64,000 bases of DNA, from contig CM060734.1 in the NCBI GenBank assembly GCA_030704615.1, forward strand, positions 17,484,001 through 17,548,000, given 5' to 3'. Source of the stretch: Takakia lepidozioides (Eukaryota; Plantae; Bryophyta). This document shows positions 6,561-36,526 of the stretch, one piece after another. The position numbers and the translations under genes are program-made. Position 1 is the stretch's first letter; every line of letters starts with the position of its first letter. The notes beneath the pieces were generated by a model that was given only the letters and a program-made list of their open reading frames with translations, searched no databases and was not told the origin of the DNA.

Positions 6561-6699
6561 GCGTCGTTGGAACCTCGAGCACCTCCCACGTGTGCCATGG
6601 ATGTCTACACCCGTGGTCCTCACCGGCTCGCCCCCACTCGGTGCCTGTACCGTCTCGGTAGGCAGAGAGACCATCAAGGGAAGTGCATTCCGCACTCTA

Positions 6700-7601
6700 T
6701 GTTGCTCAGCCATAGCCAAGCTGATAATCCAGGTCAAGCAATTGAGATCCATTGCTTGCCCCAACACCTGACGACGTGATGCCTCAGAAAGAGAAGGCAC
6801 TGCCGTGGTCCGAGTGGAAAATCCCATAGCCCGCTCTCGCTCGTCGGCATTAGGCTCCACTAACTGTTGCAACTGGCTATCCCACAAGAGACCAGGTCCA
6901 CCATCCCGAAAAGCATGGGATCCTGGGAAGCTGAGCAGTGTAGGTAATGCTGCTCGTGGTTGAGCCACCCTGTTGACCACTGCCAAAGGCGAATGGTCAT
7001 CTTGTCTCACACGTTGAGACTGCCTTCTTGTGTCCAAAATGCCATCCACGGTGAGGTGTGCTGGCCGCTGCACCCCATCAAATGCACGCTTGAGTAGTGC
7101 GGGTGGCATCAAGTTAGTCCACCAAAGCCGTGGACGATGAGCCCGTGATCCCACTGCAGCTGCATCCAGCAGCACTGCTGACCCAAGCCACGACCGGACT
7201 TGATGCACACTGGCCATCACCCTGGCCCGAGAATCGCCCATCAGTGGCACATTCTCTAAGATGTATGCTGGCGATACAGCTTGATGAAGCTGCAAGTGGC
7301 GCAAAATCCGCACCATCTCCCAAAACAGACCCGTCCTCGAGTCTCACAATCCATTGCCATGCCCGGCTGATGAATGCCCTTGGCAGGGCCAACCTACCAC
7401 TATCAGATCAATGGAGCCAACCTGCTCCAAATCCTGCGCCCCCAGCAACGAAATGTCTGCTGGCAAGGCTTGTTGGTATCCACGAACTGCAGACACTGGC
7501 AACAAAGTAGGGTACTGCTGTACCAACTGAGCAACATGGCGCAGTGAGACGCGTCGTGCAGTCTTATCCCTCTCCACATACAGATAACGCCTTACCCGCA
7601 C
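6700..7601 (-). pseudogene. DNMT3-like C5 cytosine methyltransferase domain (copy A), motif I deleted
   Basis: YLYVE (II), IDLIVVGWPCQGHS (IV), YILENV (VI), AHRPRLWWTNL (VIII; cf. DNMT3 AHRARYFWGNL), ERERAMGF (IX), RRQVLGQAM (X). One frameshift near 7340. Confidence 0.9.
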
Positions 7602-9111
7602 ACTTGAGCTGTAGCCATGGCAGCGAGCCTCTGCTCTAGCTGCTGAAGCCGGTTGGCCATGCCTTGGTCAACACCCTGACCTCCGCGTCCTTGGCCATGT
7701 TGAGCTTGCCCTTGACCTGCACCTCGTGCCCGACCACCTCGTCCTCTCTGGGCTGGTCCACCTCGCCCCCGGCCACCATTGTTCCCTTGGAACTGGCCTG
7801 GGCGCAACTCAGGATGCAAGTCATAACACTGGGCATCTCCATGCCCATACTTGCCACAATGCCCACACTACAACTGTGCAGGCTGTACTTGTGCCGGCCT
7901 TCTGCCACTCTCTGGGCAATCTCTTTTGACATGGGGTCCTCCACATGTCCAACATATCACCCCTGGTTGTTGTTGGCCTGCAAAAGATGCCACGGGCCTC
8001 TGCACCTGAGGTCCCCTGTAAGCTCCATGGAACTTGGGTTGGGAAACCTTGCCCCCCTGACCACGCTGTTGAGCAGTCCCTTGTGCCTGTGGGCTGGCAG
8101 CTGCGCCTCGTGCAAGCATGTCCTTGCCAAATCCAATGGTAACAACTCGCTCCTCCACCATGTTGAGCTCAATCTGCTCAGCCAGCAGAAATACACATCT
8201 GCTAATGTGGGTTGGGCTGCTTGTAACAGGGTTGCATCTCGCACCCTTCTCTTGAGCTCCTTGTCCATAATTCCATACCAAAACTGGATTGCCTGAGCTT
8301 CAGTAACCCCTTGGGTCACACTTATCAAGCGCCTCATACGAGTGTACGCCTCTCGCAGGCTCTCACTGGGTTTGCGCTGGAAGTCTTGCAAACTTCGCAG
8401 CTTCTCTGTCCGTACACCTTGGTAGTTCCTCCGCAACTCCTGGAAGAACTCCACCACCGGGTTGAATCTAGGCACATGTGTTGTAGTTGTGGCAGGAGGA
8501 GTAGTAGCACCTTTTGAACTGGTACCACCTGCAGAAGTACCGGCACTACTTGCTCCACTACTAGTGCTGGCAGTGGAAGATATTGGTACTGATGCAGCTA
8601 CTGGTCGCGTCGTGCCTCGAGTAATGGAGACGTAGTCAGGTGACCAATACATCCTCCACTCCTCAATCTCTGCTTCATGTCCTCGCCTGAACTCATGGTA
8701 ATCGTCCATAGGCGGTCCTTCCAAATGCTGGAACAGTCCTTTCCACGCCATGAATGGGGTGAATAGCTGTGGATTGCGCATCTGCTGCAAATCACACCAG
8801 CTGTCAAACTCCTGGATAAAGTCATCCAACTCGATTGTGCCCACAGCTCCAGAGTACCTACGAGGCCCCTTGGTAGCTCCATATATCTCCTCCATGTCGT
8901 CCCATAACAATGGCAAATGAAACTGCACACCTGTTGATGAAGCCTCCGAGTCTGTGTCTGACTCTGCACTAGTTGAGGGTGGAGGTGAAGGTGGTCTGAA
9001 ACGAACACCTCGTCTGGTGAACCTACTCTCACTGCTACTGCATGTAGCCGTACTCCCCTCAGAACCCCTGGGTAACTCCGTGATGACACTCACAATGTGT
9101 ACCTCCCCCAC
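7602..9111 (-). pseudogene. gag with two Zn knuckles (copy A)
   Basis: Capsid-like region (LQDFQRKPSESLREAYTRMRRL), CWTCGGPHVKRDC knuckle, second CCHC and RGG-rich tail. Frameshifted. Confidence 0.85.
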
Positions 9112-9777
9112 GTGACACTATAAGGCTCTATTACTAATTCTAATAGTGACACGGGTAGGCATCTGTTGCAGTTTAAGGGTCATATCCCAGTGGCTCAGGG
9201 CACCTGCACCTGCATCCACCGCAAGAACTCCTATGGTTGGCTGGTCATCAACCCAGTCTCACCATAGAAGAAACACTGGTGGTCTTGCTGGTCATCACTC
9301 CAGCCTCACCACCGACAACATACTCTAGGATTGACCGGTGATCAAATCCGGCCTAATCCCTATGAAAGCAAGCGCCCACACAAAACCAACATGGCGCACA
9401 GTCAAGCATGCAGGTGTTGGGGGGGATCCAAACACAAGAAATCAAAACATCAACACCCCCACACCAAAATCCATCTGCAGTGCTGACCTGCAGAATATCC
9501 CAGCCCAAAACCCCGGATTGACTGGCCTCCACCAAGAGAGGCTTTGGCAACTACGAGTACAAGGTAATGAAAATAGTACAGAGATGGAGGGGAAGAATAG
9601 AAGCCCGCCCAAGCAAGATCTAATCCTGATCTATGCTATCAACTGCCAGACTTCTCTCAAAGTGCCTTGCTCTGCATGATGGTAAGGTGTAGGAGGTATA
9701 TCTATGTCCAGAAACCTGCCACTAACCTTGTCCCAAGCTACAGTAGCTCGCTCTAACCAACCCTCCTCCTCTTTCTG

Positions 9778-13690: not shown

Positions 13691-15084
13691 TCCGAATGAA
13701 TCGATTCTTTTGAAGGGTTTGTTTAAAAACCACGAGTTCACCTGTATGCCTTCTTTATGATTGGATGTGAGCCTCTCTATCAACCTTGTATAACTTGGAA
13801 AATGACATGTGGTCCTTCTCAATCAACAAAGCAATGTGGACTCAATGTTTGCAATATACACTGCACCCGACATAATTGATTTTCAAGCACGACAAGCATG
13901 GTTTCATGGATTTTGGAGCTAAGGGGTTTTGGGAGCTACCACTACAAACAGCTATCTATCCTTTCATTTATGTCATTCATCCACTTCTCATTCGTTATAC
14001 AAACATTCATCTGACATTCATCCCTCATTCATCCAAGCAGCATCCATATCCGAGCTTGTGATACTGGCCACTCTGCGCAGTAATAGGTCTTCTAAGTCGA
14101 CTAGACGTCCGCGGTTATAGGTAGGCAGGTCCTCAAGCGTGAGCAGATTTCTGCTCACGAAATTTTCTGCTTGCGGGATCCGCTCACACAATAGCATCCC
14201 CTTGTCATTATTATGTTGCTTGTCAAAGAAACCACATATGGTAATATCCCTCAAATGACTGACTATGCTACATCCCCCGCCCATTTATCAGTGATACTCC
14301 AGACAGTGGGTTGCATGGGGCCATTGCTCCCCTCTCCCACTAGCACTCTCCTCCCCTCCCAACACTCACACGCCAGTCTGCCCTAAAGGCAACTTGGCTC
14401 CTCCATGACAGTCACTAACCACACCCACGAACTTCCATCTGTCACTACATTTCCCCCAGGCACCATACCTTCCCACAGTCACCGTGCACCCCTCCCCCTA
14501 CTCTCTTACAATCATTCTCTTCCCCGCACTCAAATGGCACATCCATCACCTCATCCAACCCCCTACCCCAATTCACAATGCAATCCCCCACCACTGCCGC
14601 ATATATACAATCATGCAAGAACCCTTGCTCTTTGATCACCCATCTTTTACAAGAATTCCCCCCACAACCCTCACCGCATGTGCCCTCTTCCTATAGCAAA
14701 GGGCCTGTTTGGTATTCTTCTCGTCTCATAGCTTACAACATTACACGAACACAATTACTTCCCAAGGTCTCGTACATCCTTTATTCAGGCAAGTGCACGT
14801 CAACAACTCACAGCCAAGCACCAACTCCACACGATCCGATAAATTCTCATTATAGCCCTTTCAACACCCTCATAATTCCCTACATCTCTAGTGATTCCAA
14901 TGGCTACTGGCCTATCTCCACAACCTCCTCGATAAAAACACTCCATAGTATGTTGAAAGTAACAACACCCGCCTCCGAAGGTGTCACGTACACACTCCTC
15001 CCAAAAAGGCTGCTCTTGTCGCCACCCCCTGGCACCACGCACAACCACGATTATTCTAGCCTAATGTGTTTTACCTGATTCCCC

Positions 15085-17813
15085 TATCATGGTTCTAGTC
15101 ATGGTTAACTAGAATTACCTACTTCTAGTTAATTAGGACATTTTGGATATTTATATTTATATTTTGTGTATTGGGACTTCATTTGGTCTCATATGCCAAG
15201 TGAGGTGTCAAGCCTCACTTGGAACATGGGGATGGGTTTTTCCCTTGTGAGGGTTGAGGAGGGCTCATTCATGAGTGGAGTGTTTCCATTGTGTTCACTT
15301 TCATTATCACTACAAGAAGATGACCTTATGCTTGTGAGTGCAAAGTGTAAGGGTTAGTATTGCACTTGTATGTAAGGAGGTAGAGAGCTAGGAGAGCTCT
15401 TGTGCTTGCAAGGTATTTTCAAGGAAGGGTGCATGTGAGTTCTATCAAGGGGTTGGAGAGCTCAAGGAGAGAGCTCTTGTGCTTGCAAGGTGTGGCAAGG
15501 GAGAGTGTATTTGCATTGCATCAAGGAGGTGGAGAGCTCAAGGAGAGAGCTCTTGAGTTACAAGGCTTTGCAAGTATTGCAAGGAAGAAAGTCTTGTGTG
15601 CGTGGAAGCAAAAGGTTTGAAAGTTTGAGAAGAAGGAGCGTCATCTCTTGTATCTCAAGTGTTGTGACAACCATTTGCCAAGGAAGTGGCTTCTATGGTG
15701 AAAATAATGCATTGAGGGTTTGTAGAAGCATTATTGTGCACCAAGGGTTTGAGAGCTTGGAAAAGAGCTCTTGCATCATAAGAGAAGTGTCTTGTGTGTG
15801 GAGAAGATAGACACTAGGGTTTCAAGAGCAAGCTCTAGTTGTTCATGGTGTGAAAGAGAAGCCAAAGAGCAGCACATGCTTGGGTTGGAAACACCATAGA
15901 AGGAGTACAACAAGGGTAGTTTGAGGAGCATTAGCTCAAGAGAAGCTAAGAAGTGGTTGTTTTATCCATGGTGAATGAAGCCAAGTGGGGTTTCATTTGG
16001 TTGACAAACAAGCAAGCTAAGGCGCTAGAAGGGAGTGCTTTTGCTAGTTATATGAGTTCTTGGATTGCTCTTGGTGAAGCAAGTGGTTGACCAAGCAAGT
16101 GGCGCATGTGTGGAGTAAGCTTTCCAAATGTGGTTTCCCAACTTCAAGCTTGAGGAGAGCTATAAGGTGAAATGAGCAAGTTCATTCATTTGTGTATGAG
16201 GTGGTGCATGTGTGGAGCATGTTTTAATTGGCTTAAGCTTTGCCCTTTGAAGCTTGAGAGGAGTGGCTCTTGCGCTAGCAAGTGAAAAAAGCTTGAATGA
16301 CCAAGGTTTGAGAGGAGACAAGGCTTGGTGGCTTGCTAAAGGAGGGGGTGCATGTTGTGGAAGAGAAGCTAAGGAGCTACATAGGCTAGGGCTTGAAGAC
16401 AACAAAAGCAAACACTTGGAGAGCATCAAGAAGCTCAAGATGACCCCAAAGGCAAGCATGTGGGTGAAAATTCTATCCATGATGATGTGAAACCAAGCCT
16501 AGAGCATTGAAGAGCTTGGAGCACATGTGGGAGATCATTGGAGGTGGTCTTCATGAAGAAAGGAGATTGTGGCTCAAGGCATGCGTAGCAACTTCAACCA
16601 TACATTAGCATATGACAAGACAAGGAAGGGGAGGTGAAGCTCATGTATTCATTCCCTTCTTGCTTAAGTTTTGTGGTGGATGGTTGATCAAGCAAGCGAT
16701 GCTTATGTGGAGCATGCTCTTTAGGGCTTATGATTTCAAGTTTGAGAAGATGAGCTCTTGAATAGAGGTGTGGATACACATTATTGTGAATGAAGACAAC
16801 ACCTAGGCCAAGAGGTGGAAGTGTGTGTGACTAGCCCATGCAAGGGAAAGCACATGGAAGATGACATACAAAAGTCAAATTGAAGCAAGGCTTGGCGCCT
16901 GTCATTGGGCACATTAGCTTGCTATGAGTTCCAAGGAGATCATGAGAAACTTGTCAATTTGTGATGAATGCATTGCAAGATAAGACAATGCAATCTTGCA
17001 TGCATGTTAGGGGGGAAGATACCATGAAGAAGGTGTTTTTCACCATCACATAAACTCCTTAAGACTTGGGGTAGAAGCATGGATCAGGAGCAAAAATGTG
17101 TATGGTGTTTCTTACTATACTCTACAAACCCTAGTCTCCATCCACTTCAAAAACTGGGTATGGCTCATTCCGCCCACCATACATTTTTGTAATAAATGTA
17201 TGGCTCATACTGCCTAGCATACTTTTTTGTGAAAAGTGTATGGATACAAGTGGAGAGACTTTGCCTGCCAAACGTTTTCATTAAAAGTGTATGACATATA
17301 TGGTGTATCCGGAGGAGTATTGCATTTGGAGGATCTTTGGGGGGTCCTTGGAGGAGCTTTTGGAGGGCACATTGAAGAGCCTTTGGAGGGCTATTTGGAG
17401 GACTATTTGGGGTCCTTGAAGGCCAATATTTGGCAAGTTTGTGGAGTCTTGAGGGCTCTTAGAGAGTTCTTTTGAGAGATCCTTGAAAGGTAGTCTTGTT
17501 TATTACGCAAGTAAGAGAGTGTGGGGATAAAGGTAGTGGGATGAGATCATGCTTGGGATTAGGAATTGCTTTAGTCTCTCTTCCTTGTAGGCTTTCACCC
17601 TCTCTATAGGCCAAAACCTTTCCGTAGGTGGAGGCAAGAGTCAGTCCGGGTTTGGGCTAAGGTGTCTTGTAGGAGCGACACCGTGCATTGTTTTTGGTGT
17701 GGGGGAGTTACCGTTTTCATTTTCTTGTGTTTGGATCCCCTCCACACCTGTATGCCTGAATGTGCGCCATGTTAGCTTTGTGTGGGCGCTTGTTTTCATA
17801 AGAGGTTGGTCCG
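15085..17813 (+). mobile_element. DNMT-gypsy copy C, 5' part (repeat A plus long leader), interrupted by copy B
   Basis: Homologous to the reverse complement of 26145-29565. Ends ...ggttggTCCG and resumes TCCGgatttgatcacc at 29566. Confidence 0.9.
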
Positions 17814-17900
17814 TGTCGTGCACCTAAGCATCGTGCCACAACATACATCATTGTCCACCACACAATCTAAGCACACAATCCTAGAAAGCTATACCACAAT
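17814..17900 (-). repeat. Terminal repeat B2 (87 bp)
   Basis: Near-identical to 18254-18339. Confidence 0.9.
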
Positions 17901-18251
17901 GATAATAGAAGTGAACACACAATGGAAACACTCCACTCAATCACATAAACTAAGTCAAGCCAAGGGCACCTTTGCTAAGGGAATCCACCCTACAAAGCCC
18001 TCACCGCACTCCCTCTCAATACCTAGAGCTATGGAGGTGGGAGAGGCTCATGGAGGCTCAACTACAAGAAGATGAGCCTCCTCCATCCTCACAAGGGGAA
18101 AACCTATCCCCATGTCCCAAGTGAGGCTCGACACCTCACTTGGCATGTGAGACCCAATGACGTCCCAATACACAAAATATAAATATAAATATCTAAAATG
18201 TCCTAAACTAGAAGTAGGTAATTCTAGATAACCATGACTAAAACCATGACA
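17900..18251 (-). repeat. Repeat A2 (~350 bp, TG...CA)
   Basis: Direct repeat of 29244-29565. Also matches 15085-15309 in the opposite orientation. Confidence 0.9.
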
Positions 18252-18253
18252 GC

Positions 18254-18339
18254 TGCCGTGCACCTAAGCATCGTGCCACAACTACATCATTGTCCACCAC
18301 ACAATCTAAGCACACAATCCTAGAAAGCTATACCACAAT
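18254..18339 (-). repeat. Repeat B1 (86 bp), directly after the PPT
   Basis: Matches B2. Joined to A2 through CA-gc-TG. Confidence 0.9.
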
Positions 18340-18350
18340 CGCCCCCCTAG
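18339..18350 (-). promoter_or_regulatory. Polypurine tract
   Basis: ctAGGGGGGcGA immediately before TTGTGG (start of B1). Confidence 0.7.
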
Positions 18351-18600
18351 CCGGTGATTAGGTCCCTCTAACACCAGATAGCTGACAAGTATCCATCCCA
18401 ATAAGATCATCGCTTGGTCATCAATCACCCAAGTCCCACTATCTATAGTCAATAGATCAAGAGGTCGGGTGCAAAGGTAGCCCCATCATTACTCGCCTTC
18501 CTGCAATCCATGGCTTCAATTGGGTGTCCATGGCATCGAACTCCCGTTAGCTAGACCTTGGATCACTTGTCAACCTCGTCACTGTCATGCCCCACTACCT

Positions 18601-18840
18601 CTATCCAAGGCATCGTGGACACAACCATTCTCCACTAAGAACCTCCTTAAGTGGTGGTGTCAAGCATCCCATGTGCCACCCCCTTGAGCATTTGTCACAC
18701 ACCAACATGGTCGCAGCACCACCAGCATGCCCACATGCATGCAACGCAACCCTGCAGATACCACTGCAAGGTTGGGATCTATCCTCCCATCCACATGTGG
18801 AAGGTGACATGGCGCACAATTGCGCACATGGTCCTTCCAT
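18601..18840 (-). pseudogene. PHD finger at the integrase C-terminus
   Basis: MLVCDKCSRGWHMGCLTPPLKEVLSGEWLCPRC matches the PHD pattern. Confidence 0.85.
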
Positions 18841-18849
18841 ACCATGCCA

Positions 18850-19870
18850 TCTCGACCCTCCATAATCAACACTCCTGAAGGCAACATCTCCCGGACCCTT
18901 AGAATCACACGACCTGCTGTGACATCCAAGGGCGTAGGCATTGTCTGCTGCAGATACACATAGTCCCCAGGATGGAAACGCCGAACACCTGGCCGATATC
19001 TCCCTCCACGTATAGTGGCGTACCTCAATGTGTCTCGGTGTTGGGCAATAGCAAGGTTCTCAAAAGCCATAGGCATGACTCTCTTGAACAACTCTGCCCG
19101 TTGGGCACATGCTTGTGTCCACACATCCAGATCATCAAGGTTGAGGACTACTGCAGTCTCCCTACGAATAGATGCTGGCAAATCTGGCTCTCGGCCAAAG
19201 AGAAGGAAATAAGGCGAGAACGAGGCAAGTGATGCTTGCTTGCTAAACCTGTAACCCATGGCCAACCAAGGTAGCTGAAGGTCCCAATCTCCCAAGTGTC
19301 CCTTCTGCAAGCCATACTTGCGCAAGCCTCACTTGCGCAAGCCTCGTTTGACTGTTTGCACAACCCTCTCGGCCAAGCCATCGGCCTCGGGATGATCCCG
19401 AAAAGTAGTGCAGTGATCTATCAAGGCTTGCTCACACAAAGCCTGAAACTCCCCCAATAACTCTCTCCCCTGGTCCGTGAGTACCTCGGCTGGAGCACCA
19501 AATTGGCTAAGCACTCGATCTAAGAATGCATACGCAGCCCCCTCACTTGCCTTATCATGCAATGCCACCAGTTCAATCCATTTGGAGAAATGTTCCACCA
19601 TCACCAGCACATATTTGTTATGGCGAATCGTTAGTGGCAATGGGCCTGCAAAGTCAAGACTCCAACGATAGCCCAAACCCATAATGGGTAAAGAATGCAA
19701 TTGTGGAGTAGGTGCATTGAAAGAAGCCCGCACTCTATCACACACCATGCACCTTGCCACTAATTGTTGCACATCCGTGTGCATGCCCCGCCACCAATAC
19801 TGTCATTGCAGCAAACTATGAGTGCGCCGCACCCCAAAATGTCTCAACTCCTCATGGGCATGGCGTACCA
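18850..19870 (-). pseudogene. DDE integrase
   Basis: HHCC remnant (CMVC), WSLDFAGP (D), VLTDQG (D), DGLAER (E), SPYFLLFGR. Frameshifted. Confidence 0.9.
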
Positions 19871-20249
19871 ATCGCGCTCATTGTGTTGGATGAGGCACAA
19901 TCCTCACTTGTCCATCCTCCCATACTCGGAGTAGGTGAGTCCCCTCCCACTTGAACCTCTTGGCTCGTTGTAGGATCCGATCTCTCTCCTTAGCAGTCAC
20001 ACTGGCTTTTGTCTCTCTAGTACAAAGGTAGGCCAACACTGCTACATCTTCATATACATCCTTAGCACCACCAAGCTCCTCACTGATCTCTGGATTGTCA
20101 TGCACACTATCTATATGACCGATCGCATGGGATGGACTAGCTTGAGCTCCCATTGCTAGAATGCATAAAAAGGCAAATGCGTGCCATCCTGGCACCATCT
20201 CCTCATCTGTCTCACCATGCCAACGAGCTCTTGTATCATCAAGCTCACT

Positions 20250-20640
20250 TGTGCATGGATTGCGACTCAATCCATCCGCATCTCGGTTGACTATTCCAGC
20301 TCGATGCACCACCTGGAAGTCGTATTCTTGAAGCATAAGTGCCCACCGTGCAAGCTTCCCTGTAAAGCTTGTCTGACTCCATCAACCACTTCAATGGTTG
20401 GTGATCCGTGACAAGGGTGAAGAGATTGCCATAGAGGTAGCATCTAAAATGTGTCACTGCCCATACAACAGCTAGACACTCCCCTTCATAGGAACTATAC
20501 TTCGCCTCGGCATCATTGTTCGAGCGGCTAGCATATGCTACTATGAACTCTCTTCCCTCATCATCCACCTGTGTGAGCACTGCTCCAATCCCCAGCATAC
20601 TCCAATCTGTATGTAGCTGGAAAGACCCTGAATAGGCCGC
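20250..20640 (-). pseudogene. RNase H
   Basis: GIGAVL, YASRS, EGECLAVVWAV, TDHQPL, NRDADGLSR. Confidence 0.9.
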
Positions 20641-20705
20641 CTCAGAATAGGCGCAGAAGTCAATCGAGCCTTGAGTTCCTCAAAGGCTTCCTCCTGCTCC
20701 TCCTC

Positions 20706-21590
20706 CTACTGCCACTCCTGACCCACCTTGGTCAACTTGGTAAGAGCCTTTGCAATACTGCTAAATCCCTTGACAAACCGTCGATAGTAGTTTGCCAACC
20801 CCATGAAAGCACAAACTCTGCTAACATCGATGAGGCGTGGAATGCGTGGAATGGCCTCCACCTTTGTCTTTTGAATACCCAATCCTCCAGGGTATATCAT
20901 GTGGCCCAGATACTCAATCTGGTTGTGGAAGAACTTGCACTTCCCAGGGTGCAATTTCAACCCATGCGCTCTCAAGCGCTCAAACACCATATGAAGGTGT
21001 CTCTCGTGCTCCTCAATCGTAGCACTAAAGATGATGATGTCATCAATGTAGCACCGTGCGAAGTCTAGCCCCGCAAGAATCATATCCATGACCCTCTGAA
21101 ACTCTGCAGGAGCATTCTTCAACCCAAACGGTAGAAACCGCCATTGGTACAAGCAATCATTCCCATGTTGGTCAATCCCCCATAATGTCGTCTTTTGCTT
21201 GTCAGCCTCTTTGATTGGCAACTGGTGGTAACCGGATCGCAAGTCCAATGTGCTAAACACCTTTGCATGCCCAATGGCATCAAAGATCTCCTCTGGAGTT
21301 GGCACGACATATCTATCGGACTTAGTCTGACGGTTCACAGGACGATATTCCCCACACATCCTCCTTTCTGTCCAATTGCCATAGATATCCTTCTTAACTG
21401 GCATCACCGTTGTCGAGGCATACTCCCCGCCTGACAACTCCACCAATCCAGCTTTGAACAACTCCATAGTCCATGACTGGATCAAAGACCTCTCCATATC
21501 ACTATACTTGTAGGGCCTTCGAAAAATTGGCATGTCACTTGCCAAATCAATATGAATCTCTTGGCCCTTCAAACTCCCCAAATCCTTCAA
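20706..21590 (-). pseudogene. Ty3/gypsy reverse transcriptase
   Basis: FSTLDLRSGYHQ, LPFGLKNAP, YIDDI, KCKFF...YLGH, FMGLANYYRRF. Confidence 0.95.
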
Positions 21591-22119
21591 ACCGAAGGCA
21601 AAGCAATTTCTATAAGCCCTTAGACATCGCTGGATCCTCCGTCTCTCTCCTCCGGTGACTGTAGGTCCAACATCTGGTTCCCAGTTGTCCTCAGTGACTG
21701 CAACCTTGGGTATACCAGGCTTGGAAGTAGGAGACGCATCCTTTGGTTGCTAGATAGCAACCTCTTGGGCTTTATCTGCCCACCCTGACCGTGGCGTAGC
21801 CTCCACTTGCTCCGCCATAGCCACCTTGAGAACATCCTCTGGGGAAGAAACATTCTCAACCTCTTCAAAAACATTGGCCACTTTGGCCTCCAACTGATCC
21901 TCAGTATTTGGCTCTCCCCACTCCTCATACTGCTGCTTCAGAGATCCAATGACTCTCTCTTTGCGCATCTCATCCCACATCTGCCATGGGTGTTTGCACC
22001 CCATGATCCTGTGCTCACCCCCACTCACTGCCTCCACTGTCCCAGTTGGCAGAGATGGTGCAATATCCAATGGAAGTGCAGAAGTAGCCACCCATGCTTG
22101 TAATCTCCATTGCTCAGCC

Positions 22120-23070
22120 CTGCATAAGCCAATGATCCATGTCAAGCAATTGAGATCCATTGCCTGACCCAACACCTGGCGTCATGATGCCTCTGACAGA
22201 GCCGGCACAACTGTAGTGCCCGGGCAAATCCCATCGCCTGCTCTCGTTCATCCGCATTGGGCTCCACCAATTGCTGTAGCACACTGTCCCAAATCAACCC
22301 AAGACCATTTTCTCAAAAAGCATGAGACGAGGGAAAGCTCATGAGCGTAGGCAAGGCTGCACGTGGCTGCCCCACTCGATTTACCACTGCTAGAGGTGGA
22401 CGGTCATCATGTCGCACCCTCTGTGGTTCCTCCCTTGGTCCAAAATGCCCTCAACTGTGAGACTGGGTGGCCGTTGAATGGAATTGTATGCTCTCTTGAG
22501 CAGCTCTGGTGGTGCAAGATTGGTCCACCACAGTCGAGGTCGATGCACTCGTGATCCCACCACTGCTGCATCCAATAGCACCGCCGATCCAATCCAAGAC
22601 CGCACCTGATGCACACTGGCCATAACCCTAGCCCGAGAGTCCCCCGTAAGAGGAACATTCTCCAAGATATAGGCTAGAGGTTGCACTTGCCTCGTCTGCA
22701 AGTCACGCAACACTCTCAACATCTCCCAAAACAAATGCGATCGTGCATCATGCAAGCCATTCCCATGACCTGCGGGAGAGTGTCCTTGGCAAGGCCATCC
22801 AGCTATCACCAAGTCAATGGCACCATGCCGGTCCAAATCATCCACCCCCAGCAAGGTAATGTCTGCTGGCAAGGCCTTTTGATACTCTTGAATTGCTGAG
22901 AGAGGCAACAACTCAGGATACCGGTGTATGAGCAAGGCGACGTGACGGAAATACGCCGAGCTATCTCACCCTTCTCCACATAGAAGTACTTGCGTACTTT
23001 AATCCTTGCTTGCAACACTCCTGCAAGCCCATGCTCATGCCTCCAAACATGTCTAGCAAACAAATCCCTG
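22120..23070 (-). pseudogene. DNMT3-like C5 cytosine methyltransferase domain inside pol (copy B)
   Basis: CLLDMFGG (I), YFYVE (II), IDLVIAGWPCQGHS (IV), YILENV (VI), HRPRLWWTNL (VIII), LGQAMD (X). Several frameshifts. Confidence 0.92.
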
Positions 23071-23399
23071 AGTCAAGTGGTTGCCAGGTTATGGGCATTG
23101 TGTCCAAAGGAGCTAACTGAGGAGGTCCGGGTGATATCACTGAACTCCCCTCACTCACCAATGGATAGGCCTCCTGCCATGCTTGGTGCACACACTCGCC
23201 TGCTACTCGATGCAAATTCCCAACTGTACCCCACAGTGGAATATGAACAGACACATGAGGAAGCAAATCAGCCTTGTATGCCAATTGTTTGTCTTCATCA
23301 GGTGGTGGCCTATCATCTGCATGGCTATTGCCCTCCAAGAGCTCACCACCCCAAGCCACCACCCCTGAGAATGCAGCCAATGTGGGCATCATGTTCCTA

Positions 23400-23830
23400 T
23401 GATCTACCGCTACATTCCCAATAAACCGTATTGGGAGCAGTGCACGTCGACCATCCCCTGACTGCCATTCCGGCCTGTAGGATGTCGTTTCTTCCCAAAA
23501 GTCCAAAATAAAGCCCATCGGGTATAGCACAGCCCCACCAACAAGCACATCGTAAGATATCGTGGCCATAACAATGGCTTTAACTCTCATGATAGAGCCA
23601 TCTGTAGGATGATCAGGCTGCAATCGAATGAAGAGCTCATGGCGTGTAATCCCTCGTGCCTTCTCTGAACCGCCCAAAGATGTTTGAATTTGGAAAGGGC
23701 AAGGTTCTAAATCCGCCTCTATAAGGCCCAAGCCTGCAATTGCTGCTCTCCCCAACATCAATGGCTATGCTCCCGAGTCCAACAAGATCCGCAGTGGCCT
23801 ATACCTCCTCCCGGTTGGGCCACCCAATTG
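23400..23830 (-). pseudogene. Retropepsin (aspartic protease)
   Basis: RILLDSGA active-site motif and YDVLVG. Confidence 0.85.
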
Positions 23831-25870
23831 AAACACTCCATCCTGATTGTCCACCAGGACTACCCCAGGAGTCACCATGTTGCGCTCAATGGCTGGCCTA
23901 GCTGGCAGCTCCTGCAACCTTGCAGCTGCCGCTTGCCATGGCGCAGCTGTGGCTGACTTCACCCTCAAAGCGTCCATAAACTGCACCTTATCTGCTATCT
24001 CCGCAGATAGTGCCGATGCATCACCACTCTCACAGAGTCTAGCTGCTAGTCTGAACACAGCAGCTGGCCGAATCCCCAGCATTGCAATGGTCATTGCAGA
24101 AAATAATGGAGCTTGGCAAATCACCGTAGCCGCCCCCAACAATGTACTAGCTGCACCTTGCTTTGCAGCACCACCCAATGGCATTTCCCGAGCCACATCA
24201 ACTCTCCCCAATGACACTCGTGGCTCTACCTTTGACACACTTGGGTGAGCGGGTGCCATTGATGGCGTAGGTGGCACTGTCTCAACCAATGTAAAGGACT
24301 GTGGAAGCTTTGTCTGACGACTTGTTTCCCCCCTTTGTGGATCAAAATCCACATCCGCTCCTCTTGGCTCAGGAGCACGCATTGCTGCTCGAGTGACAGC
24401 AGCAGCAAAGTCCAATACATGCAATGGCCCTGCAAGTGCGGCTCCACACATGAAGCCCATACCAATCTGGTCTTCCCTAGGCATAGGAGGTTGTGCAAGT
24501 GGAGCTTGAACCTCAGGCCTTGGAGCTGGCGCAACATGAGTAGTGGCCATGGTAGCAAGACGTTGCTCTAGCTGGGCAAGTCTATCCACCATGCCATGGT
24601 CATGATCTTGACCTTGACCCTGTGCTCCTTGGTATTGGTTACGACCTCCACCACGACCTCTACCTCCTCTACCTCTTTGGGCTACATTGCCTCGTCCTTG
24701 GCCACCATTTTTCCCTTGGACCTGGCCTGGTCGTAGCTCAAGATGCAGGTCATAACAATGGGCCTCCTCATGCCCGTACTTGCCACAATGCCCACATTGT
24801 AATTGTGTAGGCTGTGCCTGTGCCGGCCCTTTGCCTCTCTCCGAGCAATCCTTCTTGACATGGGGTCCTCCACAATCCCAACATGACACACTCGTCTGTT
24901 GCTAGCATGAGAATAAAGGGAGAGACCTCTGAATCTGAGATCCTCTATGGCCTTCCCTAGGCTTCATCTGAGCCCCTTGTTGCCTTGAGCACGTTGGGGA
25001 GTTGGTTGTTGTTGGCTAGGAACTCCATTTTGTTGTGTCTCCTTGCCAAATTCCACCATAACCACCCGTTCCTCCACCATATTGAGTTCTATCCGCTCTG
25101 CCACTAAAAACACATTTGCTAAGGTGGGTTGGGCTACTTGTAGGAGAGTTGCATCCCCCACCCTTCTTCTCAGCTCCTTGTCCAGGATCCCATACTAGAA
25201 CTGGACTGCCTGAGCTTCTGTAACCTTTGGTAGTTTCTCCTCAACTCCTCAAAGAACTCCACAATTGGATTAAAGACAGGCACGGGTGCTGGTGCTGCAG
25301 CAGGAGCTTGAGTGGATTTCCCAGCTCCTGTACCACTTGTCCCACTACTAGTGCTTGCAGTTGGAGATGTTTGTGTAGCTGCTGGTGTCGCTGCTGCCCT
25401 TGTGCCTCTAGTGATAGAGACATAGTTAGGTGACCAATACTCTCACCACTCCTCAATCTCCACCGCATGTCCCCGCCTAAATTCATGGTAATCATCCATG
25501 GGCGGCCCCTCAAGGTGCTGGAATAGCCCTTTCCATGCCATAAAGGGCGTAAACAGTTGTGGATTGCGCATTTGCTGCAAATCACACCAACGTCAAACTC
25601 TTGTATGAAGTCATCAAGCTCGATGGTGCCCACAGCTCTAGAGTACCTACGTGGCCCCTTGGTAGCTCCATACATCTCCTCCATCGTGTCCCACAACAAT
25701 GGCACGGAAATGGCTTGCACCCTCGGTGAGAATCCTCCTGACTCCGAGTCTGAACCTTCCTCAGAAGACACTGAAGTTGAAGGTGGCCTAAACCGCACAC
25801 CTCGTCTTGTGTACCCACTAGTATCGCTGGTGCCCGTACCGGCACTCCCCTCAGCAATTGGTGGCACCTC
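23830..25870 (-). pseudogene. gag with two Zn knuckles and Ala/Pro-rich linker (copy B)
   Basis: Homologous to the copy A gag. CWDCGGPHVKKDC and CGHCGKYGHEEAHC. Internal deletion near 25225. Confidence 0.85.
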
Positions 25871-26904
25871 CGTGATGAAAACTCACAATCCAACCGGTTG
25901 TCAACCTGTCTCTAATCCCCACTTTCTACAAGATAACCGGGTAGAGAACCTGTTGCGGCCTATGGCTTAGACTAGTACCACGTTTGTAACATAAACCTAC
26001 ACCTGCACCTGCATCCACCGCAAGCACTCATATGGTCTGCTGGTCATCAACCCAGCCTCACCATAAGAGAAACAATGATGGTCTGACTGGTCATCACCCC
26101 AACCTCACCACCGACAACACGCTCTAGGATTGGCCGGTGATCAAATCCAGACCAACCTCCTATGAAAACAAGCGCCCATACAAAACTGACATGGCACACA
26201 ATCAAGCATGCAGGTGTGGAGGCGATCCAAACACAAGAAAATCAAGACAGTAACTCCCCCACACAAAAAAAAAACACTCCACAGTGTCGCTCCTTCAAAG
26301 ACACCCCAGCCCAAACCTGGACTGACTCTTGCGTCCACCTACGGAAAGGTTTTGGCCTACATAGAGGGTGGAAGACTACGGGGAAGAGAAACTAAAGCAA
26401 TTCCTAATCCCAAAATGCTCTCATCCCGCTAGTCTCCCCCCATCTCTAAACGCTCTTGCTCATGACCAACAGACATAACTACCTTCCAGGGTCTCTCAAA
26501 TAACTCTCCCAGAGCCCTCAAGATGTCTCTCAAACAATCTCACTAAGGCCCCCAAAGCCTGCCAAATCTTGGCCCTCAAGGACCCCAAAAATTCCTTCAG
26601 ACAAGTCGCCAAAGACTCCTTAAGCTCGCCAAATATTAGCCTCCAAGGACCCCAAAATAGTCCACCAAATAGCCCTCCAAAAGCTCCAAATATTTGCCAA
26701 ATATTGGTCTTCAAGGACCCCCAATAGTCCTCCAAACACCCCTTCAAGAGCTCTTCAATGTGTCTTACAAAAGCTCCTCAAAGTGTAATCCAAAGGCTCC
26801 TCAAATGGCCCCCCAAAGATCCTCCAAAGGCAATACTCCTCCAGATACACCCTATATGTCATACACTTTTAATGAAAACGTATGGCAGGCAAAGTCCCTC
26901 CACT

Positions 26905-27090
26905 TGTATCCATACACTGTTCACAAAAAAAGTATGGTGGGGCAGAGGGAGCCCATACACTGTTCACAAAAACGTATGTTGGGCAGAGGGGGCCCATACA
27001 CTGTTCACAAAAGTGTATGTTGGGCAGAAGGGTTCCATACATTGTTCAAAAAAGTGTATGGTGGGGCAGAGGGAGCCCATACACAGTTTC
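26905..27090. repeat. ~35-bp tandem repeat in the gypsy leader
   Basis: About five ccatacactgttcacaaaa..gtatg..gggcagaggg units. Confidence 0.8.
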
Positions 27091-27270
27091 TTGAAGAGTA
27101 TGGAGACTAGGGTTTGTAGAGTATAGTAAGAAACACCTTCTTCATGGTATCTTCCCCCCTAACATGCATGCAAGATTGCATTATCTTACTTTGCAATGCA
27201 TTCATCCCAAATTGACAAGTTCCTCTTGATCTCCTTGGAACTCATAGCAAGCTAATGTGCCCAATGACAA

Positions 27271-27928
27271 GAGCTCCTATTCTGTCAGTAAACAGCTCAA
27301 TTCCATCAGTGACAAAGGTCAACGAAGGTCAGCACGAACATTTGTCCTTGCCCAACGAACCTGCCCAAAAACTACACCTTCGACTAACGAAGGTGACAAC
27401 ATTCGCTCAGCCATGGTGCTTCCAAAAATTATCATTTTTCCCCACTTCACCCCGAACCTTCGTCCATCGAAGGTGGAGGATGATATAGCAATGTAAATTT
27501 TATTTTAATTAATTAAAATAATTATAATTATAATTATTATAATTTAAAAAATCATTTTCCCCAAATTCACCCTGATCATCTTCTTCATCCTCCACCTTTG
27601 GCCAACGAAGGTGTTCTCCGCGGCCATCTAGCCTACGACTGCTGTCCTTCAAGTCCACAACTCATACCTAGCCTTCTGTGATAATTAAAGGGTTTTGTAT
27701 TTTACCTTGTTAGGTCTCGACGTTAGTTATCTGATGATGACAAGCAATATAGTGTTGTTGTCATTCATTTCCTACTGGAAAACGACTATCATTCAGTTTT
27801 GGATTTACAGGCAGCCCAAGAAAAAAATATTTTGGACGACCCTTTGCCACGTGGCCATTTTTTGTGTGTCCACGTCATACTGATGGCTGATGGCTGATGG
27901 CTGATGGCTGACAAAATAGCAATCCCCC
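27271..27928. mobile_element. Non-autonomous MULE-like insertion in the copy B leader
   Basis: Absent from copy C. Flanked by duplicated ccaatgacaa (9-11-bp TSD). Imperfect TIRs (ctattctgtcag / ctgacaaaatag). Confidence 0.8.
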
Positions 27929-29231
27929 CCAATGACAAGCGCCAAGCTTGCTTGAATTTGAATTTTGTATGTCATCTTCCATGTGCTTTCCCTTACATGG
28001 GCTAGTCACACACACTTCCACCTCTTGACCTAGGTGTTGTCTTCATTCATCATAATGTGTATCCACACCTCTATTCAAGAGCTCATCTTCTCAAACTTGA
28101 AGTCACAAGCCCTAAAGAGCATGCTCTACATAAGCATCACTTGCTTGATCAACCATCCACCACAAAACTTAAGCAAAAAGAAAATGAATACATGAGCTTC
28201 ACCTTCCCCTTCCTTGTCTTGTCACATGCTAATGTATGGTTGAAGTTGCTATGCATGCCGTGAGCCACAATCTCTTTTCTTCACGAAGACCACCTCCAAT
28301 GATCTCCCACATGTGCTCCAAGCTCTTCAATACTCTAGGCTTGGTTTCACATCATCATGGATAGAATTCTCACCCACATGCTTCCCTTTGGAGTCATCTT
28401 GAGCTTCTTGATGCTCTCTAAGTGGTTGCTTTTGTTGTCTTCAAGCCCTAGCCTATGTAGCTCCTTGGCTTTTCTTCCACAACATGCACCACCTCATACA
28501 CAAGGAATGAACTTGCTCACTTCACCTTCTAGCTCTCCTCAAGCTTGAATTGGAAGCCACACTTGGAAAGCATGCTCCACACATGCGCCACTTGCTTGGT
28601 CAATCACTTGCTTCACCGAGAGCAATCCAAGAACTCATAGAACTAGCAAAAGCACTCCCTTCTAGCGCCGCCTTCGCTTGTTTGTTTGTCAACCAAATGA
28701 AACCCCACTTGGCTTCATTTCACCATGGATAGAACAACCACTTCTTAGCTTCTCTTGAGCTACTCAATGTTCCTCAAGCTACCCTTGTTGTACTCCTTCT
28801 ATGGTGTTTCCAACCCAAGCATGTGCCGATCTTTGGCTTCTCTTTCACACCATGAACAAGTACTAGAGCTTGCTCTTGAAACCCTAGTGTCTATCTTCTC
28901 CACACACAAGACGCTTCTCTTGTGATGCAAGAGCTCTTTTCCAAGCTCTCAAACCCTTAGTGCACATACAAGCACTTACCTTGCAAAACCATGCAAGCTT
29001 TTTGATACAAGAGCTCTCTCCTTAAGCTCTCCACCTTTGCAAAGTCTTGTAACTCAAGAGCCCTCTCCTTGAGCTCTCTACCTCTTTGATGCAATGCAAA
29101 AACACTCCTCCTTGCAACACCTTACAAGCCTTGTGAGATACTTGAGCACTCCTAGCTCTCTCACTCCTTGGTGTACACCAACACAAGTGCTAAAACTAAT
29201 CCTTACACTCCGCACTCACAAGCGTAAGGTG

Positions 29232-29243
29232 ATCTTCTTGTAG
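29232..29243 (-). promoter_or_regulatory. Self-priming (Tf1-type) primer-binding site
   Basis: CTACAAGAAGAT directly follows A1 and is the exact complement of ATCTTCTTGTAG inside A (29418-29429; 18062-18073). No TGG tRNA-type PBS is present. The same site occurs in copy C at 15310-15323. Confidence 0.7.
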
Positions 29244-29565
29244 TGATAATGGAAGTGAACACACAATGGAAACACTCCACTCATGAATCCACTCAATCAC
29301 ATAAACTAAGTCAAGCCAAAGGCACCTTTGCTAAAGGAATCCACCTTACAAAGCCCACACCACACTCCCTCTCAATACCTAGAGCTATGAAGGTGGGAGA
29401 GGCTCATGGAGGCTCAACTACAAGAAGATGAGCCTCCTCCAGGCTCGACACCTCACTTGACATGTGAGACCCAATGAAGTCCAACACACAAAATATAAAT
29501 ATAAATATCTAAAATAAATAACTAGAAGTAGGTAATTCTAGATAACCATGACTAAAACCATGACA
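29244..29565 (-). repeat. 5' terminal repeat A1 (~320 bp)
   Basis: Direct repeat of A2 with small indels. Confidence 0.9.
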
Positions 29566-32563
29566 TCCGGATTTGATCACCGGCCAATCCTAGAGCGTGT
29601 TGTCGGTGGTGAGGCTGGGATGATGACCAGTCAGACCATCATTATTTCTCTTATGGTGAGGCTGGGTTGATGACCAGCAGACCATAGGAGTGCTTGCGGT
29701 GGATGCAGGTGCAGGTCATGCAGGTTTACGTTAGAAACCTAGTATTCTAAACCGTAAGCCGCAACAGATTCTCTACCCGGTTACCTTGTAGAAAGGGGGA
29801 TTAGAGACAGGTTTACAACCGGCGTGGTTGTGAGTTTTCATCACGGAGGTGCCACCAGTTGCTGAGGGGAGTGCCGGTGCGAGCACTAGTGATACTAGTG
29901 GGTACACAAGACGAGGTGTACAGTTTAGGCCACCTTCACCTTCAGTGTCTTCTGAGGAAGGTTCAGACTCGGAGTCATGAGGATTTTCGCCAAGGGTGCA
30001 AGCCATTTCTGTACCATTGTTGTGGGATACGATGGAGGAGATGTATGGAGCTACCAAGGGGCCTCGTAGGTACTCTAGAGCTGTGGGCACCATCGAGCTT
30101 GATGATTTCATACAAGAGTTTGATAGTTGGTGCAATTTGCAGCAGATGCGCAATCCACAACTGTTTACGCCTTTTATGGCGTGGAAGGGGCTATTCCAGC
30201 ACCTTGAGGGGCCGCCCATGGACGACTACCATGAATTTAGGTGGGGAAATGAGATGGAGATTGAGGAATGACGACAATATTGGTCACTTGACTATGTCTC
30301 CATCACCAGCGGCACACTAGCAAGATCCACGGCAACTATGACCGCAGCTACACCAGCGGCTTCTGCAAGCAGCAGTGGAACAAGTGGGTCAGGATCAGCT
30401 GGGACATCCACTGCAGCTCCTGCCGTTGCACCAATACATGTGTCTGCCTTCAATCCGATTGTGGAGTTCTTCGAAGAGTTGAGAATAAACTACCAGGGGG
30501 TGATAACAGAGAAGTTGCGGAGCTTGCAAGAGTTCCAACGAAAGCCTACTGAGAGTATGAGGGAGGCTTACACTCGCATGAGGCGCTTGATAAGTGTAAC
30601 CCAAGGGGTTACGGAAGCTCAGGCAGTCCAATTCTGGTATGGGATATTGGATAAGGAGCTGAGGAGAAGGGTACGGGATGCAACTCTCCTACAAGTGGCC
30701 CAACCCACCCTATCAAATGTTTTTTTGCTAGCAGAACGGATAGAGTTCAACATGGTGGAGGAGCGGGTGGTTATGGTGGGGTTTGGCAAGAAGACACGAC
30801 AAAGTGGGGCTCCTAGCCAACAACAACAACCAACTCCCCAACGTGCTCAAGGCAACAAGGGGGCTCAGACAAAGCCCAGGGAAGGTCAGAGAGGATCTCA
30901 GTCGATGCAAAGGTATCTTCCTTCATTCTCAGGCCAGCAACAGACGAGTGTGTCATGTTGGGATTGTGGAGGACCCCATGTCAAGAAGGATTGCCCGGAG
31001 AGAGGCAAAGGGCCGACACAGGCACAGCCTACACAATTACAGTGTGGGCATTGCATGGCAAGTACGGGCATGAGGAGGCCCATTATTATGACCTGCATCC
31101 TGATCTACGACCAGGCCAGTTCCAAGGGAACAATGGTGGCCGAGGACGAGGCAATGTAGTCCAGAGAGGTAGAGGAGGCAGAGGTCGTGGTGGAGGTCGT
31201 AACCAACACCAAAGAGCACAGGGTCAGGGTCAAGGTCATGACCAATGCATGGTGGATAGACTTGCCCAACTAGAGCAACGTCTTGCTGCCATGGCCACTA
31301 CTCATGTTGCGCCAGCTCCAAGGCCTGAGGTTCAAGCTCCACCTACACAACCTCCTAAGCCTACGGAAGACCAAATTGATATGGGCTTCATATGTGGAGC
31401 CGCACTTGCAGGGCCATTGCATGTATTGGACTTTGCTGCTGCTGTCACTCGAGTAGCAACGCATGCTCCTGAGCCAAGAGGAGCGGATGGGATTTTGATC
31501 CACAAAAGGGGGAAGCAAGTCGTCAGACAAGGCTTCTACAGTCCTTTACATTGGCTGAGACATTGCCACCTACGTCATCAATGTTACCCGCTCGCCTAAG
31601 TGTGTCAGAGGTAGAGCCACGAGTGTCATTGGGGAGAGTTGGTGTGGCTCAGGAAATGCCAGTGGGTGGTGTTACAAAGCAAGGTGCAGCCAGTACATTG
31701 TTGGGGGCGGCTACGGCGGTTTGCCAAGCTCCATTGTTTCCTGCAATGACCATTACAATGCCGGGGATTCGGCCAGCTGCTGTGTTTAGACTAGCAGCTA
31801 GACTCTGTGAGAGTGGTGATGCATCGGCACTATCTGCGGGGATAGCAGATAAGGTGCAGTCTATGGATGCCTTAGATTTGAGGGTGAAGTCAGCCACAGC
31901 TGTGCCATGACAAGCGGCAGTGCACGGTTGTAGGAGTTGCCAACTAGGCCAGCCATTGAGCGCAGCATGGTGACTCCTAGGGTAGTCCTGGTGGACAATC
32001 CAGATGGAGTGTTTCAATTGGGTGGCCCAACCGGGAGGAGGTATAGGTCACTACGAGTCTTGTTGGACTCGGGAGCTCAACCAATGATGTTGGGGAGAGC
32101 GGCAATTGCAGGTTTGGGCCTTACAGAGGCGGATTTGGAGCCTTGCCCTTTCCAGATTCAGACGTCTTTAGGTGATTCAGAGATGGCGCAAGGGATCATA
32201 CGCCATGAACTTTTCATTCGACTACAGCCAGATCATCCTACGGATGGCTCAGTCATGAGAGCCAAAGCCATTGTTATGGACGCGATGTCATATGATGTGC
32301 TTGTTGGTGGGGCAGTGTTGTACCCCATGGGATTTACTTTGGATTTTTGGGAGGAAATGGCATCCTACAGGCCGGAGTGGCAGTCAGGGGATGGCCGACA
32401 TGCACTGCTTCCAGTGCGATTTATTGGGAATGTAGCGGTGGATCATAGGAACATGATGCCCACATTGGTTGCATTCTCAGAGGTGGTGGCTTGGGGTGGT
32501 GAGCTCTTGGAGGGCAATAGCCATGCAGATGATAGGCCACCACCTGATGAGGACAAGCAATTG
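29566..32563 (+). mobile_element. DNMT-gypsy copy C, 3' part (gag, protease), truncated before DNMT
   Basis: gag ~29850-31300, VLLDSGA ~32060. Homology to copy B stops at PPPDEDKQL. Confidence 0.9.
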
Positions 32564-35436: not shown

Positions 35437-36251
35437 GACCCCTTCATAAGGTTTCCCCCTCTTCAAAGTAGATTCCAACCCCCGGATAGTTTTGCCATAG
35501 GGGCTGGAAATGCCTACTTCCTCGCCTTTCCATGTTTAAGGATCAATAAATGGGTGTCATGGATCAGCAAACAGGGATAAGAGAACACTGTACAAACCCA
35601 CTCCAGACAAGTGTAACGCAGGATGGTAGCAACCTTCTATACACCGTCCTGGTTTTAAGGCCAGTTTTTCCAAAGGTATGATAAGCACTAGCATATTACA
35701 TATGCATATTTGCTTAGTGGTGCTACATAGAGCAAAGCCACTTGTAGAGAGGTATGAAAGCATATGAGCCTAAGAGTGTCTAAAACTGAAACAAGGCATC
35801 AGCTACAGGATACCATCTAACACAAGTAGTGTGCATTGACTGGATCATGTAGAAGGTATACACACACTCCTGCAGGTGGTTTTACCTGGGCCTAGCTCAA
35901 TATATCAATATGAAGACAACATCCAAAAGCATTATGCTTACCTTAAAGACCTCCGTGCTTAGAATCACCAACAAGTTTTTGCTGGAGGACATACCTTATG
36001 AAGGTCATTGCTCCGTATCTTTGTCGTGGAGGGACCTTCTGCCAGGCCAAAAAAAAACCATGTTAGTATATCAACATGATGAAGAAATAACCAGAAAGGA
36101 AAGTGGTAGATGGTGTGTACAAGAACCACCGAGTAGAAGATACTCATGTCATGTCAAGACATGGACAAGACCCACTAGGGTCATCGTCAATTGACATAAA
36201 CAACCCATAAACAGGGTTGAGGGTTCATGGGCACGAAGCAGCAGACAAGGT
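35437..36251 (-). repeat. Left arm of an ~810-bp inverted repeat (Penelope-associated sequence)
   Basis: Near-identical reverse complement of 36527-37340; mirrored ORFs in the ORF track. Confidence 0.9.
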
Positions 36252-36526
36252 GAAAAATGCAGCTTATGATGGCCCTGGAGATTTGTTTAATTACCCTTAA
36301 TTATGGCTAATTAAGGAGTGAAACCCTAACCCCTACCCTATAACCCATTGTTTAAACCTAGCTAACGGATGACATCCGTCGGGTTTCGAGATAAGGGGTT
36401 TTGATTATTCATCCTGCACGGATGAAAAATCGGGCTTTGCCCTAGGGTGTCTCTCCCGCCGTCAGCAGCACTCCTCGTGCTTCTGAGCTCGCGGGTTGAG
36501 AGTTATGGCGTCCGAGCTCTGCTGCT

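Follow-up and report, generated by a model that had tools for sequence, protein, structure and literature searches.

A DNMT3-bearing Ty3/gypsy element of the green lineage in Takakia lepidozioides, with split repeats and a predicted internal integration site

INTRODUCTION

Why does a DNA cytosine-C5 methyltransferase lie within a Ty3/gypsy retrotransposon of a bryophyte, and how does such an element insert? The question is raised by a stretch of 64,000 nucleotides of Takakia lepidozioides (NCBI GenBank assembly GCA_030704615.1, contig CM060734.1, positions 17,484,001 to 17,548,000 of the forward strand), called here the window, with positions counted from its first letter. One element of the window, copy B, carries a DNMT3-like domain between its protease and its reverse transcriptase (RT).

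We lean towards the following answer. Copy B is a dead, full-length Gypsy-Dnmt3 of the green lineage; its DNMT domain ends the Gag–protease frame, is likely packaged at the Gag level and would methylate CpG in the complementary DNA (cDNA), and an internal palindrome, not the ends, is the likely place where the DDE integrase opens that cDNA. DNMT3 within gypsy elements is already published; the breadth of the family, the Gag-linked position of the enzyme and insertion ends in the middle of the long terminal repeat (LTR) appear new, as far as the literature was searched.

RESULTS

Copy B and its methyltransferase domain

Copy B is a complete Ty3/gypsy element on the minus strand with a 4-bp target duplication and broken genes. 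The canonical features of Ty3/gypsy are present: the order Gag-PR-RT-RH-IN (PR, protease; RH, RNase H; IN, integrase), the DDE triad, and a target duplication within 4–6 bp. The order of domains is protease, DNMT, RT, RNase H, integrase and PHD finger, in the open reading frames (ORFs) ORF1 and ORF2.

17814..29565, minus: copy B, full-length split-repeat Ty3/gypsy element, dead (11.75 kb)
24700..25900, minus: gag, broken, with two zinc-knuckle-like motifs at 24770-24883
23440..23899, minus: aspartic protease, DSG motif at 23768-23788 (Pfam support in copy D and in locus L028)
22149..23059, minus: DNMT3-like C5-methyltransferase, motifs I-X, frameshifted
21750..21752, minus: in-frame stop TAG, followed by CAA CCA, between ORF1 and ORF2; conserved
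20706..21600, minus: RT (RVT_1, E 3.7e-32; YIDD at 21039-21053)
20342..20620, minus: RNase H
18800..19900, minus: DDE integrase with catalytic triad
18610..18738, minus: C-terminal PHD finger (PF00628, E 7.4e-10)

The methyltransferase motifs of copy B follow each other on the minus strand in the normal, unrearranged order (I at 23027-23059, II at 22965-22985, IV, PCQ, at 22783-22806, VI, ENV, at 22654-22671, VIII at 22516-22551, IX at 22241-22264 and X at 22149-22181). The longest open piece of the gene (ORF 22390-22965) matches PF00145 with E 6.4e-13 and 49 bits (cut-off 22). Since the motifs change frame four times and are interrupted by stops, the gene of copy B is a pseudogene. In copy A, a divergent relative in the same window, motifs II-X (6741-7583) occupy a single frame with one stop, and the DNMT genes of both copies are dead. 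Both retain the catalytic Cys, ENV and the arginines of motif VIII. The first-pass annotation of this DNA had reported the motifs of both copies, the retained Cys and a likeness to DNMT3, and had proposed the PF00145 comparison; all of this is borne out on the minus strand, with a significant profile match. It had also placed the domain in the gypsy pol between protease and RT: the position between these two holds, but the domain ends the Gag–protease ORF and is not in pol. The stop behind the domain, the repeat layout described below and the deletion in copy A (protease region and motif I are gone, and the copy ends before the RT) are additions to that annotation.

A DNMT profile built from 16 stop-free relatives finds, among PDB entries, DNMT3A (E 4e-21) and DNMT3B (2e-18), then a DRM-type entry (1e-10) and bacterial enzymes (2e-7). 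The AlphaFold model of the intact DNMT domain of L028 (pLDDT 93.9) has DNMT3A/B as its best Foldseek match (TM 0.73). With its closest profile, closest predicted fold and unrearranged motif order, the domain appears nearest to DNMT3, and not to DRM, DNMT1 or DNMT2. Of the 55 mapped loci, a few of which are bacterial, 51 preserve the catalytic Cys and 53 the Asn of motif VI. A crude pattern finds EC in place of PC in motif IV of 74 of the 150 representatives (P0207-P0347).

The ratio of nonsynonymous to synonymous change (dN/dS, Nei–Gojobori) that the first-pass annotation had proposed to estimate between subfamilies is 0.11 for the DNMT of B versus A (261 codons, dS 1.5), which is not neutral. 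Between subfamilies it ranges from 0.07 to 0.18, with dS near saturation in several pairs. The unsaturated pair L028 and L027 gives 0.136 (dS 0.25), with 0.10 for the RT and 0.10 for the protease. Values of ~0.11–0.14 imply that the domain is no passenger and is under purifying selection, and passive capture is rejected. The explanation in which the DNMT is a passively captured fragment of a host gene, and the repeats a local rearrangement of copy B, is therefore very improbable. It could appeal to the broken state of copies A and B and to the dN/dS of 0.54–0.66 among dead moss-type copies, values that are expected after insertion. It is opposed by the low ratios between subfamilies, by DNMT and RT trees that are broadly alike and, for the rearrangement, by the same layout in locus L013 and the presence of the repeat junction in algal elements.

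A lineage spread over green algae and bryophytes

At E up to 1e-30, 523 clusters (50% identity) match the DNMT profile, not all of them necessarily element-borne; named relatives come from Marchantia, Calypogeia, Sphagnum, Riccia, Klebsormidium, Closterium and Haematococcus. In the RT tree (FastTree, midpoint root, rows hand-chosen from the matches), a single clade (SH-like 100) unites 38 of the 46 rows and contains all DNMT-bearing elements. The clade holds copy B and the elements of Klebsormidium, Closterium, Marchantia, Calypogeia, Sphagnum and chlorophytes, with copy B as the sister of those from liverworts and peat moss; RTs with a chromodomain lie outside it. The DNMT trees (a quick tree and FastTree, on element and bacterial sequences) broadly agree with it. 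The Klebsormidium protein P0135 (KFL_009030040; DNMT-RT-RH-IN), taken from its host and domains as a copy of the published KnitGypsy-Dnmt3, belongs to that RT clade as well; its DNMT and that of L028 are 45% identical. The multi-subfamily land-plant lineage supposed by the first-pass annotation thus exists as several subfamilies with land-plant relatives, but it is not separate, and the phylogeny asked for there unites it with the Klebsormidium element. Judged by these sequence comparisons, the element belongs to an old green lineage that includes KnitGypsy-Dnmt3.

Layouts among the 150 representatives are RT-DNMT-IN (51), DNMT-IN (26), RT-DNMT (13), PR-DNMT (6), DNMT before RT (3) and DNMT alone (51). 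In chlorophyte-type elements the domain lies between RNase H and integrase, in streptophyte-type ones before the RT. Copy B retains the DDE triad, as do 20 of 23 loci. The host contains the family in abundance, with 45,199 contigs of one run placed on copy B. The scan of viral contigs gave 6 loci, all of them weak matches (35–46% identity over about half of the query).

A few observations concern single relatives. The spacing from D to E in the integrase, usually 35, is 34 residues in L028 and, by eye, also in copy B (window 19329-19802) and in the Klebsormidium protein. After its PHD finger, L049 has a tail that resembles an N6/N4 amino-methyltransferase (L049:7901-8752; PF01555 E 0.006, below the cut-off); this element may carry two methyltransferases, reminiscent of the published EpiLTRs. 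Algal-type L038:11043-13766, L036:5577-8697 and L042:55-10881 have extra long ORFs or polyproteins of up to 3609 amino acids (aa), in which a Pfam scan of the extra parts gave no clear family.

A conserved stop behind the methyltransferase

The DNMT domain terminates the Gag–protease ORF, ahead of the in-frame stop that separates the RT ORF. Of 21 land-plant-type loci, 20 have the stop (14 TAG and 6 TAA; L010 and L013 are one insertion), and the sole miss is a 1.3-kb contig. CAR follows the stop everywhere except in a single decayed copy. The intact L028 has a Gag–protease–DNMT frame of 1369 aa, TAG, and then, in register, an RT-RH-IN-PHD frame of 1047 aa. The stop context of copy B, L027 and L028 fits UAG-CAR-YYA (UAG-CAR-YCA in L030), which we take to be the readthrough signal of tobacco mosaic virus. 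Moss-type copies read CAA CCC ATG after the stop. Many database proteins of 1330–1450 aa contain the DNMT and no RT family. Since the DNMT precedes a conserved stop, the enzyme would likely be made in bulk with the particle coat, at the level of Gag.

Split repeats, predicted self-priming and insertion ends

Instead of identical full LTRs at both ends and a polypurine tract next to a 3' LTR that closes the element, copy B has the layout A1 ... polypurine tract, B1, GC, A2, B2.

29566..29569, minus: left target-site duplication, 4 bp (same 4-mer at 17810-17813)
29244..29565, minus: repeat A1, left end of the insertion
29417..29429, minus: predicted self-primer within A1, complementary to the primer-binding site (13-nt match, shuffle maximum 9)
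29232..29244, minus: primer-binding site, adjoining A1
18339..18348, minus: polypurine tract, immediately 5' of B1
18254..18338, minus: repeat B1
18245..18260, unstranded: near-palindromic junction B1-GC-A2, internal; predicted integrase site
17900..18251, minus: repeat A2
17814..17899, minus: repeat B2, right end of the insertion (97.7% identical to B1)
17810..17813, minus: right target-site duplication, 4 bp

Locus L013 has the same split layout and a 4-bp duplication, with a repeat sequence unrelated to that of copy B. Given a polypurine tract ahead of B1 and a self-priming site behind A1, inserted copies start and end in mid-LTR, starting at A and ending at B. When the repeats of L013 are queried against 47 loci, A comes first, with no B ahead of it, in each of the 7 moss-type loci that have a full 5' A (6 distinct insertions), and the same holds for both starts in the window. 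In run X3, at least 20 contigs depart at the first base of A into unlike flanks (agreement 0.4; among the 24 of 285 loose-end rows listed).

The B/A junction is a near-palindrome, GACA-GC-TGTC (with GGCA in copy B and a GT spacer in L028), conserved from bryophytes to GC-rich algal-type loci. It lies ~75–115 nt behind the polypurine tract in L008, L013, L028, L030 and L039, and is also present in L049. Both of its strands offer CA-3', and both insertion ends fall exactly there. The A-to-B junctions, on the other hand, are variable (direct in copy B, with a single added base in L013 and with longer stretches inserted in reads), which is what end-joining would leave. In L019:5538-5819, a partial repeat A is joined directly to a remnant of the primer site and a complete B, as in a mini-element or a deletion product.

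The bases that follow A1 complement part of A over 13 nt in copy B, 17 in L013 and L014, 16 in L028, 17 in L049 and 12 in L039 (shuffle maxima 9–11). The match exceeds the shuffle maximum in 8 of 10 regions, from five unrelated sequences, by one base only in L008 and L012; no match is seen in L022 or in copy C, where it is deleted. The predicted primer starts ~27 nt after a TATA-like box in L013 and L028, whereas no such box is evident before it in copy B. A simple pattern found no tRNA-type motif at the primer-binding site of copy B.

The split layout is also known from elements of the DIRS group (Fig. 4c legend, PMC5890265). In a DIRS/Ngaro-like explanation, a circle would be integrated by a tyrosine recombinase acting in trans, or B2 would be copied from RNA, with the DDE integrase working on ordinary ends. 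We consider this improbable. The insertions have 4-bp duplications, each strand of the palindrome has a CA-3' end, the integrase keeps its DDE triad, and the ORFs scanned gave no match to a recombinase family. As to copying from RNA, the sequence 3' of A2 would be uncopyable after strand transfer to A2 under the standard LTR model.

CpG signals

CpG at codon boundaries is depleted (0.25–0.57) in 8 of 12 intact ORFs, including GC-rich algal-type ones, with GpC at 0.9–1.2; this is a weak hint of methylation. Differences between copies B and D are enriched at CG (0.10) and CHG (0.12) relative to CHH (0.05), which reflects host methylation. In L044:1-6803, an intact DNMT-bearing pol, CAG/CTG occurs 2 times versus 219 expected, both in the last 55 bases of the contig. 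CG is not depleted there (0.93), and the sister L052 is normal; L044 looks like a complete purge of CWG sites, perhaps escaping host CHG methylation.

DISCUSSION

A proposed cycle

In the reading that we prefer, occasional readthrough of the stop would yield RT-RH-IN-PHD, the RNA would prime itself from its own 5' end, and reverse transcription would give B-GC-A...B-GC-A. The standard LTR model would predict such cDNA ends from a polypurine tract next to B and a primer site next to A. Joining of the two ends, A2 to B, would precede strand transfer or follow directly upon it, and the integrase would cut CA^GC^TG in the upstream repeat, leaving A1...B1-GC-A2-B2. The DNMT would methylate the new cDNA and the PHD finger would guide the choice of site. 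From sequence, a cut inside the repeat, and not at the DNA ends, seems the likely way of insertion, and methylation of the cDNA is a plausible step, the one that we prefer for the enzyme. To our knowledge, retroviruses are held not to integrate through a circle junction.

The same element and integration route could also go with an enzyme that acts elsewhere, on integrated copies or host chromatin (self-silencing, damping transposition) or on RNA. We find this rather unlikely, though it is the most serious competitor for the role of the enzyme. The Klebsormidium domain was inactive in yeast, and host benefit and RNA roles are listed by the authors themselves (PMC5890265, accessible text). An abundant Gag-linked enzyme may leave the particle, and the EC form of motif IV points the same way. 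Conversely, the algal and Klebsormidium domains are inside pol, which acts in the particle, and the related SymbioDIRS-Dnmt3 shows de novo activity at CG (PMC5890265, accessible text).

Several observations weigh against the cycle with methylated cDNA and internal cutting. As regards the enzyme, KnitGypsy-Dnmt3 gave no methylation in yeast, an assay in which DNMT3B also failed and which its authors regard as inconclusive (PMC5890265, accessible text). CpG loss is absent or weak in L044, L049, L042 and L030, and the ratios are without a host-gene control. As regards the stop, it is not general: the DNMT is in frame with the RT in Klebsormidium, Closterium, L049 and P0099, the last placed within the land-plant RT clade. 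In moss-type copies, reinitiation appears possible because an ATG lies two codons past the stop. As regards insertion, complete target duplications are seen in two elements only (copy B and L013). Two loci, L023 and L025, stop at B1 and lack A2; either a one-repeat circle or a later recombination between B1 and B2 accounts for this. The 5' end A-B-A...B, expected if a circle were opened symmetrically at the downstream site, is not seen in the 7 loci. Finally, several algal contigs are collapsed assemblies and show no insertion ends, and L028, L039 and L049 are probably collapsed assemblies.

A wider statement is possible, and we would put less weight on it: in a lineage as old as green plants, a DDE integrase would normally use the internal palindrome of end-joined cDNA, a Gag-level DNMT3 would pre-methylate the element's own DNA, and its dose would have been retuned in land plants by a leaky stop moved behind the enzyme.

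Consequences

DNMT-bearing retrotransposons are extended from one alga to chlorophytes, Closterium and bryophytes, a range that includes the model Marchantia, in which the role of the enzyme is genetically testable. Integration at an internal palindrome, if true, would be a second working mode for a retroviral-type integrase. In practice, this abundant family is overlooked or wrongly delimited by standard LTR finders, and counts of DNMT3 genes in bryophyte genomes include transposon copies.

Other features of the window

The insertion of copy B splits another member of the family, of which copies C and D are the two parts.

6584..9548, minus: copy A, divergent subfamily (~70% DNA identity), with gag and DNMT motifs II-X at 6741-7583
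15084..17813, plus: copy C, 5' part of a same-family element, beginning at repeat A; host of the B insertion
29566..32563, plus: copy D, continuation of C (gag-protease), truncated ahead of the DNMT

Elsewhere, long ORFs at 1549-5743 (plus strand) resemble by eye a Mutator-type transposase, without a convincing Pfam match. A tandem array at 47440-56588 has 4.7 copies of a 1961-bp unit, 98% alike, and a 136-bp piece of this unit reappears at 35771, 36870, 59654 and 63650. A second array, at 43700-46100, consists of self-complementary units of 144–199 bp with T runs between them. An inverted repeat of 815 bp (98% alike, spacer 275 bp) is at 35437-37340, and a run of N at 61794-62293 is a 500-base assembly gap.

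Comparison with known systems

The literature searched gave no account of the family in land plants, nor of its repeats, stop, self-priming or internal site; subscription papers, Repbase reports, the figures of PMC5890265 and bioRxiv supplements may bear on this. Streptophyte DNMT3 elements are mentioned in the accessible parts of PMC12344493 and of bioRxiv 10.64898/2026.05.21.726589, and land-plant copies may be in their trees or supplements. Troyka, considered as a possible split-repeat group, is unrelated according to the accessible text of PMC12440569.

The catalytic domain of mammalian DNMT3A/3B/3C is the best match in sequence and fold, and both have the unrearranged motif order I-X. However, identity is ~21–23%, and the element domain occurs without PWWP or ADD and sits in a retroelement polyprotein.

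Among bryophyte gypsy groups, Phygy shares the 4-bp duplication and a bryophyte host. As described in the accessible text of Neumann et al. (2019, PMC6317226), it has tRNA-Trp priming, NCGN duplications and no extra domain. The present element differs in all three respects, and membership is rejected on that description. Self-priming is described there for Tf1/Tcn1 elements and is predicted for our element, which has a PHD finger instead of a chromodomain; with no match to a C-terminal chromodomain, membership in the Tcn1 chromoviruses is rejected too.

The DIRS group (PAT/Ngaro; SymbioDIRS-Dnmt3) shares the A1...B1-A2-B2 layout and a likely circle-like intermediate. In place of a tyrosine recombinase, the present element has a DDE integrase and a 4-bp duplication, together with a gypsy-type RT, a polypurine tract and a primer site. 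Membership in DIRS is rejected, given the target duplication and the lack of a tyrosine recombinase in the scanned ORFs.

The closest system is KnitGypsy-Dnmt3 of Klebsormidium nitens (de Mendoza et al. 2018, PMC5890265), later named streptophyte Gypsy-DNMT3. In the accessible text and legends of that paper, no PHD finger, self-priming or repeat mechanism is described for it, a legend calls its repeats DIRS-like, the words 'Marchantia' and 'PHD' do not occur in the main text, and the element is read as an acquisition of the K. nitens lineage. As far as that text goes, the two share an unrearranged DNMT3-like domain between protease and RT, purifying selection, and DIRS-like repeats combined with gypsy domains. 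They differ in that the DNMT is in the Pol ORF there, whereas here it ends ORF1 before a conserved stop, and in that the relatives found here are chlorophytes (with the DNMT between RNase H and integrase), Closterium, liverworts and peat moss.
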